Source: a virus (lineage: Duplodnaviria; Heunggongvirae; Uroviricota; Caudoviricetes). Taken from it: a stretch of DNA of 18,817 nt. Position 1 is the stretch's first letter. The number at the start of each line of letters is the position of its first letter. The DNA lies in IMG/VR virus record IMGVR_UViG_2563366863_000004. One strand, 5' to 3'. The position numbers and the translations under genes are program-made. Positions 13,371 through 18,817 of this stretch are shown piece by piece. The notes under the pieces were generated by a model. That model saw only the letters and a program-made list of their open reading frames with translations, was not told where the DNA came from and ran no database searches.

Positions 13371-13729
13371 ATTGGTGGAAAAGTATGACAGTAAAAATTT
13401 CTGGCGTGCTTAAAGATGGCACAGGAAAACCAGTACAGAACTGCACCATTGTGCTGAAGGCCAGACGAACCAGCAGCACGGTGGTGGTGAACACGGTGGC
13501 CTCTGAAAATCCGGATGAAGCCGGACGTTACAGCATGGATGTTGAGCATGGTCAGTACAGCGTCACCCTGCTGGTTGAAGGTTTTCCGCCTTCACATGCC
13601 GGGACCATTACCGTCTATGAAGGTTCCAGACCAGGTACGCTGAATGATTTTCTCGGTGCCATGACGGAGGATGATGTCCGACCGGAGGCACTGCGCCGCT
13701 TTGAGCAGATGGTGGAAGAGGTGTCACGT

Positions 13730-14760
13730 AACGCCTCCGCGGTTGCACAGAATACGGCAGCCGCGAAAAAATCAGCCAGCGATGCCAGTGCATCAGCCAG
13801 CGAGGCGGCAACTCATGCAACCGATGCTGCAGCCTCAGCACGTGCCGCCAGCACGTCAGCCGGACAGGCCGCGTCGTCGGCTCAGTCAGCGTCTTCCAGC
13901 GCAGGAACGGCATCGACAAAGGCCCGTGAAGCAGCAAAAAGTGCTGCTGCTGCAGAGTCATCAAAAAGCGCGGCAGCTACCAGCGCCAGTGCCGCGAAAA
14001 CGTCAGAAACGAATGCCGCAGCATCACAAAAATCGGCAGCCACTTCTGCATCCACAGCGACCACGAAGGCGTCAGAAGCTGCCACCTCGGCACGGGGTGC
14101 GGCGGCCTCAAAAGAGGCAGCGAAATCTTCAGAAACGAATGCATCATCAAGTGCCAGTAGTGCAGCTTCCTCGGCAACGGCGGCAGGAAATTCCGCGAAG
14201 GCGGCAAAAACGTCCGAGACGAACGCTAAGTCTTCTGAAACAGCAGCGGGACAGAGCGCCTCAGCTGCGGCAGGTTCAAAAACAGCGGCTGCATTATCTG
14301 CCAGTGCCGCGTCAACAAGTGCCGGGCAGGCCTCAGCCAGTGCCACCGCCGCCGGAAAATCGGCAGAAAGCGCCGCATCATCCGCTTCAACAGCCACAAC
14401 GAAAGCTGGCAAAGCCACTGAGCAAGCCACTGCAGCAGCGAGGTCTGCTTCTGCAGCAAAAACCTCTGAAACAAATGCAAAGACTTCAGCAGACAATGCT
14501 GCTTCCTCTAAGGCGGCAGCCGCATCGTCAGCCAGTTCAGCGGCGTCATCGGCATCATCTGCGTCTGCTTCAAAAGATGAGGCGACCAGACAAGCGTCAG
14601 CAGCGAAAGGTAGTGCCACGACAGCAACAACGAAAGCATCAGAGGCGGCAGGCAGTGCGACGGCTGCATCTCAGAGCAAAGTTGCTGCTGAATCCGCGGC
14701 AACGCGCGCCGAGACAGCAGCAAAACGGGCAGAGGATATTGCATCCGCCGTGGCGCTGGA
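13730..14760 (+). repeat. Degenerate tandem Ala/Ser/Thr-rich repeats inside stf (approximate bounds)
   Basis: Recurring ...SAAKTSETNA... / ...KSSETNASSSASSAASSA... units, with recurring nucleotide cores such as aaaacgtcagaaacgaatgc, aaatcttcagaaacgaatgc, aaaacgtccgagacgaacgc and aaaacctctgaaacaaatgc. They create long spurious ORFs in the other frames. Confidence 0.5.
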
Positions 14761-14932
14761 GGATGCGAGCACGACGAAAAAGGGGATAGTACAGCTCAGC
14801 AGTGCAACAAACAGCACCAGTGAAAAGCTGGCGGCAACGCCAAAGGCAGTTAAAACTGTTAAAGATAGTTCAGTTCAAAAAACTGGCGACACAATGGGAG
14901 GGCAGTTAAAAATCAGCACGATAAATGCTCTT

Positions 14933-14940
14933 CGAATATT
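14933..14940. repeat. Target-site duplication (left copy) flanking IS1: cgaatatt
   Basis: The 8 bp immediately before the IS1 end (14933-14940) are identical to the 8 bp immediately after it (15709-15716). Confidence 0.75.
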
Positions 14941-14955
14941 GGTAATGACTCCAAC

Positions 14956-15459
14956 TTACTGATAGTGTTTTATGTTCAGATAATGCCCGATGACTTTGTC
15001 ATGCAGCTCCACCGATTTTGAGAACGACAGTGACTTCCGTCCCAGCCTTGCCAGATGTTGTCTCAGATTCAGGTTATGTCGCTCAATGCGCTGAGTGTAA
15101 CGCTTGCTGATTACGTGCAGCTTTCCCTTCAGGCGGGATTCATACAGCGGCCAGCCATCCGTCATCCATACCACGACCTCAAAGGCCGACAGCAGGCTCA
15201 GAAGACGCTCCAGTGTGGCCAGAGTGCGTTCACCGAAGACGTGCGCCACAACCGTCCTCCGTATCCTGTCATACGCGTAAAACAGCCAGCGCTGGCGCGA
15301 TTTAGCCCCGACATAGCCCCACTGTTCGCCCATTTCCGCGCAGACGATGACGTCACTGCCCGGCTGTATGCGCGAGGTTACCGACTGCGGCCTGAGTTTT
15401 TTAAGTGACGTAAAATCGTGTTGAGGCCAACGCCCATAATGCGGGCGGTTGCCCGGCAT
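14956..15459 (-). CDS. insB: IS1 InsB (transposase catalytic part; expressed as InsAB' by -1 frameshift)
   Basis: 167-aa [40 protein letters not shown]... The TTAAAAAACTC frameshift motif is on the minus strand (complement of 15394-15404), just upstream of the insA stop. Confidence 0.88.
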
Positions 15460-15653
15460 CCAACACCATTCATGGCCATATCAATGATTTTCTGGTGTGT
15501 ACCGGGTTGAGAAGCGGTGTAAGTGAACTGCAGTTGCCATGTTTTACGGCAGTGAGAGCAGAGATAGCGCTGATGTCCGGCAGTACTTTTACCGTTACGC
15601 ACCACGCCTTCAGTAGCTGAGCAGGAGGGACAACTGATGGAGATGGAAGCCAC
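15378..15653 (-). CDS. insA: IS1 InsA (DNA-binding regulator / N-terminal part of transposase)
   Basis: 91 aa, [91 protein letters not shown], essentially canonical IS1 InsA with its Zn-finger cysteines. Confidence 0.92.
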
Positions 15654-15708
15654 GGGAGCACCTCAAAAACACCATCATACACTAAATCAGTAAGTTGGCA
15701 CCATTACC

Positions 15709-15716
15709 CGAATATT
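15709..15716. repeat. Target-site duplication (right copy) flanking IS1: cgaatatt
   Basis: Identical to 14933-14940. Confidence 0.75.
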
Positions 15717-17187
15717 CAACCAAGCCTTTGGCCTTATTTTTAGGCGTTCCGAAGATCATCTTCATCTTATTCCGACTAATGAAGGGGAGGGGGAAAATGG
15801 AGACATCGGTTCATTAAGACCATTCTCTATAAACTTAAGATCAGGGTTGGTGTCCATCGGTAATGGACTAAAAGTTGGTGGTAGTGTTACTGGTAATTTG
15901 ACCGGAAACGCAGATACTGCGACCAAGATCAAGACAGCACGTAAGATTGGGGGCGTGGCATTTGATGGATCGGCAGATATCAACTTGCCTGGAGTCAACG
16001 CTACCGGTAATCAAAACACTACAGGTAATGCTGCGACCGCCACGAAACTTCAGGCAGCCAGAACGATTAACGGTGTGTCATTTGATGGTAGTGCAAATAT
16101 CACATTGACCCCTTCAAATATTGGGGCATTGGCATTAACTGGAGGGACTCTTTCAGGTGGTTTAACTGCTGCTGGTGAGGTTATTTCAAGGTCAGCAAAT
16201 GGTCTGCGTATTGCCTATGGCAACTATGGATTCTTTATCCGAAATGATGGATCAAACACATATTTTATGTTGACAGATTCGGGTAACAGTCTTGGTACGC
16301 ACAATAGCTTAAGGCCGTTTATAATTAGTAACCATACTGGCAATGTTACAATTGCAACTAAATTAAACGCGAGTGGTGGTATCACTGGATCTTTATCGGG
16401 TAATGCAAGCACAGCAACCAAATTGCAAACTGCAAGGACAATTAACGGCGTAAAATTTGACGGCTCGGCAAATATTGAAGCGTTTCCGCCAGGTGTTCCG
16501 CTGCCGTGGCCATCAGATACACCACCTGCAGGTTATGCGATCATGCAGGGGCAGACGTTTGATAAGGCAGCATATCCGAAACTGGCTATTGCCTATCCTT
16601 CAGGTGTTATTCCAGATATGCGCGGCTGGACAATCAAGGGCAAACCCGCCAGTGGCCGGGCCGTATTGTCTCAGGAACAGGACGGCATAAAATCGCACAC
16701 CCACAGCGCCAGCGCATCCAGTACGGATTTGGGGACGAAAACCACATCGTCGTTTGATTACGGCACTAAATCCACGAATAACACCGGGGCGCATACGCAC
16801 AGTCTGAGTGGCTCTACGGGGTCTGCCGGTGTTCATACTCATGGTAATGGTATTCGTTGGCCAGGAGGCGGCGGTTCTGCGTTAGCATTTTATGATGGCG
16901 GTGGGTTCACTTATGTCCAGAATTCACAGTATCAAGTAAGCCCGGAGACTTCTTCCTATAGATCGTATTATCAACGTATTCAGACACAGTCAGCAGGTGC
17001 TCATACCCACTCGCTGTCTGGAACTGCAGCAAGTTCTGGCGCACATGCACATACTGTAGGTATTGGTGCGCATACGCACTCCGTTGCGATTGGTTCACAT
17101 GGACACACCATCACCGTTAACGCTGCGGGTAACGCGGAAAACACCGTCAAAAACATCGCATTTAACTATATTGTGAGGCTTGCATAA
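15717..17187 (+). pseudogene. stf: Side tail fibre protein Stf, 3' portion (distal, receptor-binding part with His-rich repeats)
   Basis: Frame is open from the IS1 junction to TAA at 17185-17187 and is in phase with the 5' part once IS1 plus one 8-bp repeat copy are removed. Product ...[35 protein letters not shown]... ends with repeated HxH motifs ([35 protein letters not shown]). Confidence 0.8.
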
Positions 17188-17771
17188 TGGCATTCAGAAT
17201 GAGTGAACAAGCACGGACCATAAAAATTTATAATCTGCTGGCCGGAACTAATGAATTTATTGGTGAAGGTGACGCATATATTCCGCCTCATACAGGTCTG
17301 CCAGCAAACAGTACCGATATTGCACCACCAGATATTCCTGCTGGCTTTGTGGCTGTTTTCAACAGTGATGAGGCATCGTGGCATCTCGTTGAAGACCATC
17401 GGGGGAAAACGGTTTATGACGTAGCGTCAGGGGACGAGTTATTTATTTCTGAACTCGGTCCGTTACCGGAAAATGTTACCTGGTTATCGCCGGAAGGGGA
17501 GTTTCAGAAGTGGAACGGCACAGCCTGGGTGAAGGATACGGAAGCAGAAAAACTGTTCCGGATCCGGGAGGCGGAAGAAACAAAAAACAACCTGATGCAG
17601 GTAGCCAGTGAGCATATTGCGCCGCTTCAGGATGCTGCAGATCTGGAAATTGCAACGGAGGAAGAAACCTCATTGCTGGAAGCCTGGAAAAAGTATCGGG
17701 TGTTGCTGAACCGTGTTGATACATCAACTGCACCTGATATTGAGTGGCCTACGAACCCTGTCAGGGAGTAA
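17187..17771 (+). CDS. tfa: Tail fibre assembly protein Tfa
   Basis: 194 aa, [54 protein letters not shown]..., matching lambda Tfa as I recall it; start overlaps the stf stop by 1 nt (ATAATG). Confidence 0.9.
17607..17771. repeat. Direct repeat copy 1: tfa 3' end
   Basis: Encodes [55 protein letters not shown] diverged copy (mostly synonymous or conservative changes) lies at 18656-18817. Confidence 0.7.
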
Positions 17772-17785
17772 TCATTGGGATTATG

Positions 17786-17818
17786 CCGCAGCACGTCTTA
17801 AGCAAGAACGTGCTGCGG
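17786..17818 (+). terminator. 11-bp hairpin downstream of tfa (weak terminator candidate)
   Basis: CCGCAGCACGT (17786-17796) / ACGTGCTGCGG (17808-17818) with an 11-nt loop. The T-tract (tatttttt, 17828-17835) is displaced about 9 nt from the stem, so this is weak. Confidence 0.3.
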
Positions 17819-17825
17819 TTGGATG

Positions 17826-18494
17826 CTATTTTTTCCCTGAAGCGGAAAACATTACTACAGTACCTTGAACCTTGGTTTTAACATTCTCGAAATGCTCTGA
17901 GAGTATATGTGTTAAGCCTTCTTCGGAATCTTTTGTGTTTGAAAAGATGCCTTTCTGATTGTAAATGCGCATCAGTTTTTGACCGAAGCTATTGTGCACA
18001 ACTCCATCGCCAAGAATTGTGGCTCCGTATAGAGTTCCATCGTCAGTTAAGGCCTGCGCCGCATTGCGTATTACACAGCTTTTTGTAGATATATTTCCAG
18101 GCAGGCAGTGAAGAAGGTAAAACATGGAAATGGAATCAAATTGACCATGTAACGCCGCGGGATAAGGTTCAAAAACATCATGGCTAATTTTATGTTTAAT
18201 TTTTGATTCCCCAGCCCTTGTAGATGCCGCGTTCAGGCTAGCTTCGTTCAAATCCATTAAAGATATCAGACTACTCTCAGGTACGTGAGTAAGGTAAAAC
18301 CCAGTTCCAACACCAATATCCAGATGGTTGTTACCTACATGTTCCAGAAAGTGTGGAAGAAGGTGTTCCTTTGTAGGACATCCCCATGCAAGCCGATTTG
18401 ATACTCCCAAAACCCACCAGTCATAAAGCTTTAGGGTAAGTGGTGTGTAAATTTTAGCCCCATCATCTGTGTTTTTTTTCATTGATTTCACCAT
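17826..18494 (-). CDS. Class I SAM-dependent methyltransferase (moron, unknown substrate)
   Basis: 222-aa ORF on the opposite strand from the tail genes. Motif-I-like LDIGVGTGFY fits a Rossmann-fold AdoMet methyltransferase. Region is visibly AT-richer than the tail genes. An alternative start at 18482 (MKKNTDD...) has a better GGTGA SD. The arrangement resembles the tfaD-ybcY-tfaX layout I recall from E. coli K-12 DLP12; this is from memory and unverified. Confidence 0.75.
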   Translation of the reverse strand: MVKSMKKNTDDGAKIYTPLTLKLYDWWVLGVSNRLAWGCPTKEHLLPHFLEHVGNNHLDIGVGTGFYLTHVPESSLISLMDLNEASLNAASTRAGESKIKHKISHDVFEPYPAALHGQFDSISMFYLLHCLPGNISTKSCVIRNAAQALTDDGTLYGATILGDGVVHNSFGQKLMRIYNQKGIFSNTKDSEEGLTHILSEHFENVKTKVQGTVVMFSASGKK

Positions 18495-18550
18495 GTTATA
18501 GTTTTATTTGTGAATTAAATCAATTATGGCGATGAATTACAAGGGGTTAA

Positions 18551-18817
18551 ATGCTGCCGCAGCATAGCGATATTGAAATAGCCTGGTATGCTTCGATACA
18601 GCAGGAGCCGAATGACTGGAAGACCGTCACCACACAGTTCCACATCCAGGAATTCAGTGAGTATATTGCGCCACTGCAGGATGCTGTAGATCTGGAAATC
18701 GCAACGGCGGAAGAAAGATCGTTGCTGGAGGCATGGAATAAATATCGGGTATTGTTGAATCGTGTTGATACATCAACTGCACCTGATATTGAGTGGCCGA
18801 CTTCACCTGCAGAGTAA
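18551..18817 (+). CDS. Short Tfa-like protein or tfa gene fragment (Tfa C-terminal domain with an unrelated 35-aa N-terminus)
   Basis: 88-aa ORF with a strong AAGGGG SD. Its C-terminal 53 aa ([53 protein letters not shown]) are near-identical to the Tfa C-terminus; the N-terminal [35 protein letters not shown] has no counterpart in Tfa. Stop is at the window end. Confidence 0.6.
18656..18817. repeat. Direct repeat copy 2: tfa 3' end
   Basis: See copy 1 at 17607-17771; the two copies bracket the minus-strand methyltransferase gene. Confidence 0.7.

Follow-up and report, generated by a model that had tools for sequence, protein, structure and literature searches.

The closest described relatives of the open reading frame (ORF) considered here are the tail fibre assembly (Tfa) chaperones, which include lambda Tfa and the gene U product of Mu and are gathered in the family Caudo_TAP (PF02413). 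As summarised in PMC9608196, North et al. 2019 assign the two halves of Tfa separate tasks: fibre binding belongs to the non-conserved N-terminal domain, and it is through the conserved C-terminal helical domain that trimerisation and assembly proceed. A second relative is tfaX (ylcE, b0563) of DLP12, a cryptic prophage of Escherichia coli K-12. A third is the protein family PHROG 3893, here called orf79, with 125 cluster representatives that are nearly all 79 aa long. Its members are widespread in Enterobacterales temperate phages, directly after tail fibre genes (records L006, 4004–4243; L087, 3010–3309; and P0001–P0120), and the representatives are found in Klebsiella, Raoultella, Enterobacter, Erwinia, Pantoea, Salmonella, Citrobacter and E. 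coli. The NCBI name of this family, “DNA polymerase V”, looks like an annotation error.

The DNA analysed, termed the window, is the whole 18,817-nt stretch of the IMG/VR record IMGVR_UViG_2563366863_000004. The segment is the right end of a lambdoid prophage, with the gene order J, lom, stf, tfa, a SAM-dependent methyltransferase gene on the opposite strand, and the ORF at 18551–18817. The genome of E. coli ATCC 25922 is 100% identical over 17150–18817, and of 5426 complete E. coli genomes, 1499 contain at least 80% of this interval. In ATCC 25922 the ORF is the final prophage gene, 231 bp from potB, and PGAP labels the locus (record L001, from 7495 on) a pseudogene, “tail fiber assembly protein, incomplete, missing N-terminus”. 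Deposited lambdoid phage genomes, PhiR26_1 and 2G7b among them, carry the cassette too, and the order tfa, ybcY on the minus strand, chimeric ORF recurs in both ATCC 25922 and phage PhiR26_1. Full-length tfa and the opposite-strand ybcY separate stf from the ORF, which is consequently not directly 3′ of a fibre gene.

Several features of the surroundings are recorded here for completeness. The stop codon of the ORF ends on the exact last base of the window, an ending on a stop codon that is seen in many IMG/VR prophage calls. Just past that end, in ATCC 25922 (record L001, 7669–7900), a G+C-rich hairpin about 37 nt beyond the ORF stop (CCTCCCCGAC...GTCGGGGAGG) is followed by the spacer to potB; this region presumably is the prophage/attR boundary. 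Farther upstream, a 768-bp IS1 element (14941–15708, with insA at 15378–15653 and insB at 14956–15459, both on the minus strand) disrupts stf, splitting it into 13385–14962 and 15847–17187; eight target bases are repeated on both flanks of the insertion, and ATCC 25922 has an uninterrupted stf of 3027 nt. Short contigs that are 97–99% identical to the E. coli prophage segment appear in metagenome-assembled genomes labelled Bacillus sp., Planococcaceae and Segatella copri (records L091, L096 and L102), where binning contamination is the likely cause.

The coordinates of the ORF and its neighbours are collected in Table 1. A first-pass annotation, made from the letters of the window alone, had credited the ORF with an AAGGGG Shine-Dalgarno sequence and a clean start, and both are present. 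BLASTP aligns ORF residues 32–86 with residues 137–191 of the upstream Tfa at 46 of 55 identical positions (84%, E = 3e-30), and at the DNA level the same relationship appears as a 158-nt direct repeat. In Pfam searches Caudo_TAP covers residues 31–87 only, at profile positions 75–131 of 131 (E = 6.1e-25). The C-terminal match is far above chance, so that the likeness claimed earlier for the last ~53 residues stands, the word “near-identical” being generous for 84%. The first 35 residues, said to have no counterpart in the upstream Tfa, indeed have none there, nor in any full-length Tfa retrieved.

Table 1. Position of the chimeric ORF, its constituent parts and its neighbours in the window
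Feature	Position	Strand	Remark
Full-length tfa, tail fibre assembly, 194 aa	17187..17771	+	Caudo_TAP E = 1.9e-44; phrog_105 E = 8.8e-101
Direct repeat, copy A, within full-length tfa	17595..17752	+	87% identity to copy B
ybcY-like class I SAM-dependent methyltransferase gene	17826..18494	-	Bracketed by two tfa 3′ copies
orf79-derived part: upstream leader, ribosome-binding site, codons 1 to ~35	18521..18655	+	PHROG 3893 homology
Shine-Dalgarno-like AAGGGG	18541..18546	+	4 nt 5′ of ATG
88-aa chimeric ORF, TfaX-type remnant, PHROG 2341 member	18551..18817	+	ATG start
Junction zone	18638..18658	+	orf79 homology clear to 18637 (codon 29), tfa unambiguous from ~18656 (codon 36)
Direct repeat, copy B	18644..18801	+	87% identity to 17595–17752
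tfa-derived 3′ part: conserved C-terminal helical domain, tail and stop	18656..18817	+	Caudo_TAP; BLASTP against Tfa

Whereas Tfa chaperones have an N-terminus of their own, that of the ORF comes from PHROG 3893. Residues 3–37 match positions 2–36 of the 79 in phrog_3893 (E = 3.9e-5), and phage Ayreon matches 18521–18637, comprising the leader, the ribosome-binding site and the first 29 codons, at 89.7% nucleotide identity. With the first 38 residues as query, tblastn returned, besides the chimera itself, Ayreon (79%, aa 1–29) and five Klebsiella phages (48.6%, aa 1–37). In Ayreon, which has no ybcY, the shared 5′ sequence runs on as a stop-containing orf79 and not as tfa. The region matched in Klebsiella phage Kp4882-3 opens a 79-aa ORF that fits phrog_3893 end to end (E = 1.1e-37), and the Klebsiella homologue has AAGGAGG aligned to the AAGGGG of the window. 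The ribosome-binding site and start codon of the ORF are thus inherited from orf79. The chimera also sits in the native position of orf79, with an opposite-strand accessory gene between orf79 and tfa, as judged from the order in phage HK225: tail fibre, tfa, dinI (minus strand), orf79 homologue (plus strand), invertase, attP.

The PHROG 3893 protein is a complete single domain of about 79 aa ending in FNPNGG, whereas the ORF keeps only its residues 1–35 and continues as tfa. AlphaFold predicts orf79 as a single compact domain with the order helix-strand-helix-helix-strand-strand (pLDDT 88, pTM 0.75). Of this domain the chimera retains no more than helix 1, strand 1 and helix 2, and the chimera's own structure model is weak (pLDDT 70, pTM 0.47). 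Eight orf79 positions within the N-terminal part are nearly invariant, and the chimera is substituted at four of them. Foldseek searches with the orf79 model gave only weak hits (E > 0.05 throughout), most of them to winged-helix DNA-binding domains. Whether the C-terminal half of orf79 might be a hidden Tfa-like domain, so that the fusion would have been a homologous exchange, was also considered; the idea was rejected, since PF16778 gave only chance-level hits (E ≥ 0.025; 6 of 32 members, the window ORF among them).

Because positions 18638–18658 are about 70% similar to both parents, the junction is not placeable to the base. It most likely lies at codon 35/36, since the ORF reads HIQEFSEY where every full-length Tfa retrieved reads LMQVASEH and where orf79 proteins have F[IV]xEL; the first-pass annotation had put the break after residue 35, which agrees with this placement. 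The junction ...TVTTQF[YH]IQEFSE[YH]IAPLQ... is common to all 26 of the aligned variants that span it, K-12 TfaX included, and to the 83 loci compared. One junction in all variants implies a single origin of the fusion.

The fusion is closely tied to its neighbour ybcY, a gene 2.5 times longer than the ORF. In Escherichia and Shigella ybcY is always accompanied by the chimera, and every ybcY among the phage records comes with one. At least 65 of 80 related loci carry it intact, and one kind of point disruption occurs, in 3 loci. Enterobacter homologues of YbcY are 61–64% identical and have a different context, with neither orf79 nor tfa in the vicinity. The presumed ancestral arrangement, ybcY beside a full-length orf79, was not found in phage records or in one genome per species. 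Against PADLOC, YbcY has a match at chance level only.

With a probability of roughly 80%, the ORF is a fossil gene fusion, a scar of recombination and not a working chaperone, whose product is selectively neutral while its DNA still serves as a patch of homology. In lambdoid phages orf79 normally lies just downstream of tfa, often with a divergent accessory gene between the two. One illegitimate or microhomology-mediated event would then have joined orf79, up to about codon 35 and with its ribosome-binding site, in frame to approximately the last 53 codons of tfa. This single junction would have spread together with ybcY through the prophages of E. coli, Shigella and E. albertii, and tfaX of K-12 would descend from it. 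The fusion product lacks the fibre-binding domain and, of the single-domain fold of orf79, has just the initial third, and therefore neither parental function should remain. The tfa-derived part of the segment demonstrably recombines with genuine tfa genes, whereby C-terminal tails and downstream flanks are swapped, and with the upstream tfa it forms the direct repeats around ybcY. The protein is possibly translated yet apparently selectively neutral.

The domain content of the ORF bears directly on this reading. The tfa-derived piece aligns with residues 123–174 of the 175 in Mu Tfa (gene U product, PDB 5YVQ_B; E = 6e-9), so the conserved C-terminal helical domain that the ORF shares with the Tfa chaperones (residues ~31–87) is complete. 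Tfa chaperones, however, also possess an N-terminal fibre-binding domain and a place right after a co-oriented cognate fibre gene, and the ORF has neither; in Pfam searches it gave no match to Caudo_TAP profile positions 1–74, which correspond to the fibre-binding domain. The ORF product should therefore not be expected to work as a tail-fibre chaperone. A different role is that of an expressed mini-Tfa, in which the oligomerisation domain mixes with full-length Tfa of co-resident or superinfecting phages and either poisons or helps fibre trimerisation. We regard this as quite unlikely, although the complete C-terminal domain and the intact ribosome-binding site and start codon are what such a protein would have. 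The first-pass annotation had raised the possibility of a mini-protein of this kind that interferes through a “fibre-interacting C-terminal domain”. That idea is not supported: the roles of the domains are reversed relative to the summary in PMC9608196, and population data reveal no selection on the fusion protein. A PADLOC search returned no defence-system match for the ORF or for orf79, and a dominant-negative made from a phage's own late transcript would hurt that same phage.

A promoter and terminator scan of 17600–18817 gave two promoter-like sites, a chance-level count with 2.7 expected, and no terminator-like site between tfa and the ORF, which favours the mini-Tfa in that late transcripts could reach it. 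With its intact ribosome-binding site and no terminator detected after tfa, the ORF may be translated. In K-12, genomic SELEX found an RpoD and H-NS site in the spacer between ybcY and tfaX (PMC3946193). The tfaX promoter proposed there (ATGGCA-15-TTAAAT) extends over both the ribosome-binding site and the start codon, its -10 element falling on the latter, and therefore would yield no translatable tfaX mRNA. The mRNA of tfaX/ylcE is detectable in K-12, with a 2.55-fold increase in mixed biofilms, and overexpressed tfaX scored in a kanamycin-survival screen (PMC12924614). The detected mRNA can be counted for the mini-Tfa; against it, the K-12 ylcE/tfaX deletion is wild-type in growth and biofilm formation.

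Exact-sequence look-ups found the 88-aa form of the window on at least 1000 contigs, and likewise the 89-aa form ending in NPVRE, so that intact forms are abundant, which speaks for the mini-Tfa. For the 61-aa form of K-12 TfaX the look-ups again gave at least 1000 contigs, and the counts were 998 for the 82-aa form and about 1100 for the 101-aa forms. Forms without the last 13–27 residues of the domain are no rarer than intact ones, which counts against the mini-Tfa. Among the deposited phages with the cassette that were examined, most carry a copy that is 3′-replaced or frameshifted; that of PhiR26_1 is 101 aa long and that of 2G7b is frameshifted. Of 83 loci, a sample drawn by similarity to the intact ORF and hence biased towards intact copies, 19 carry W12*, Q29* or W62* (the last reached by two separate mutations), a frameshift, or a 3′ end that has been replaced.

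Tests for selection give a similar picture, with low power owing to the 50 variant sites, the relatedness of the sequences and the intact-biased sample. Stop variants occur at the neutral rate (4 seen, 2.7 expected if neutral), and the orf79-derived N-terminal part, with 4 synonymous and 9 non-synonymous variants, is neutral-like (p = 0.46). The tfa-derived C-terminal part shows an excess of synonymous variants (pN/pS 0.34, p = 0.006), a value confounded by recombination. We attribute this excess to the import of alleles from functional tfa genes, but it is also compatible with selection acting on the ORF, and it can be counted for the mini-Tfa. Overall, the data point to relaxed constraint on the fusion protein. 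A broader version of the interference idea is very unlikely: here the intact 88-aa protein would be made in lysogens, or from late transcripts that read through, and would join the Tfa multimers of other lambdoid, P2-like or Mu-like phages by way of the conserved oligomerisation domain, as a broad-range dominant-negative or helper subunit. What can be listed against the reading as a fossil fusion is that the 88-aa and 89-aa intact forms, with their good ribosome-binding site, are very common, together with the low pN/pS of the C-terminal part, the induction of tfaX mRNA and the kanamycin-survival result.

That the tfa-derived part is still exchanged can be read from its ends. Chimera copies have the tails TSPAE, NPVRE, EEPDTM, APIG and QP, each of which is known on full-length Tfa too. 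All four combinations of body (SEY..NKY or SEH..KKY) with tail (TSPAE or EEPDTM) occur, and crossovers must therefore have taken place inside the ORF. In three assemblies a co-linear tfa, cut at the contig end with codons from ~56 onward present, has the TSPAE tail and lies beside potB-potA-pepT. These assemblies have neither ybcY nor the chimera, and they share with the flank of the window a 232-nt spacer that is identical at 229 of 232 positions. Their tfa resembles the upstream tfa of the window to about 55 nt before the stop and from there on is identical to the window ORF. A tfa at the potB side with the same tail and flank means that the tail and flank of the ORF are the native right end of the potB-site prophage. 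The conserved 3′ region of tfa is the crossover point. Tail-fibre modules are mosaic around such conserved segments, as older literature has established.

A related observation concerns phages 2G7b and Ayreon. Both have other tail-fibre modules and no full tfa, yet in both, 100–120 nt of the tfa 3′ end survive as a non-coding remnant, located upstream of where ybcY/orf79 lie (records L003, 4001–4120, and L005, 3246–3384). This remnant places the left boundary of the fibre-module replacement in the conserved tfa 3′ region as well.

The same exchanges could be taken as the purpose of the arrangement, the direct repeat being kept as a selected recombination module for reversible loss of ybcY or for programmed exchange of Tfa tails. 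The in-frame repeats that flank ybcY, the uninterrupted tfa with the tail and flank of the ORF at the same potB site in other genomes, and the four body-and-tail combinations, which amount to recombination within the fragment, all fit such a module. We nonetheless consider it quite unlikely. The region 15000–18817 contains no inverted repeats, and neither a site-specific recombinase nor an inverted-repeat crossover site was found. The exchange pattern is that expected of general homologous recombination between paralogous sequences, the tfa of record L103 is a patchwork and not the clean single-crossover product of the two copies in the window, and no benefit of a changed tail is apparent.

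Finally, it is highly improbable that the ORF is a 5′-truncated second tfa whose first 35 codons are meaningless or out-of-frame former tfa with a chance ATG: the PGAP label “incomplete, missing N-terminus” and the unmistakable tfa character of the C-terminal part suggest it, but the N-terminal part and its ribosome-binding site are an in-frame homologue of PHROG 3893 in both protein and DNA, and no full-length Tfa carries that sequence, so that out-of-frame or diverged tfa is already refuted as its source. The first-pass suggestions that comparison with full-length tfa might expose the N-terminus as a truncation product, or alignment as junk, are thus not borne out.

One small but useful point concerns annotation. 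The “missing N-terminus” of such tfa fragments is in fact the 5′ end of another family, one that itself bears the questionable name “DNA polymerase V”. The locus is also a worked example of the conserved tfa 3′ end acting as a crossover point for tail-fibre modules, accessory genes and prophage ends in lambdoid prophages. If a mini-protein of this type did interfere with fibre assembly, it would be relevant to phage-phage competition, as a new kind of prophage-encoded interference at the stage of virion morphogenesis. As it stands, the ORF is an ordinary, widespread remnant of little consequence. It belongs to a class that is already known, widespread and annotated (as TfaX, as PHROG 2341 and as a PGAP pseudogene), and the identification of the N-terminal donor may add a new detail while leaving that category unchanged.

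By its sequence and gene order, the ORF is the orthologue of K-12 tfaX. It matches phrog_2341 end to end (positions 1–88 of 88, E = 2.4e-60). In DLP12 the order is likewise tfaD, ybcY on the minus strand and tfaX, the nucleotide identity to the ORF is 92% over 303 nt, and the orf79'::'tfa fusion junction, the ribosome-binding site and the start codon are as in the window. Of the earlier suggestion that the ORF is a decayed second tfa like DLP12 tfaX, the kinship with tfaX is upheld by the shared order, identity and junction, whereas the view of its N-terminus as decayed tfa gives way to an in-frame PHROG 3893 5′ end. The two loci differ in their state of preservation and their setting. In K-12 ybcY is a pseudogene, and tfaX lies next to appY and ompT, whereas the window ORF stands at the potB-side end of its prophage. 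K-12 TfaX ends at codon 62 (W62*, 61 aa), whereas the window ORF reads through to a complete Tfa C-terminal domain and a TSPAE tail.
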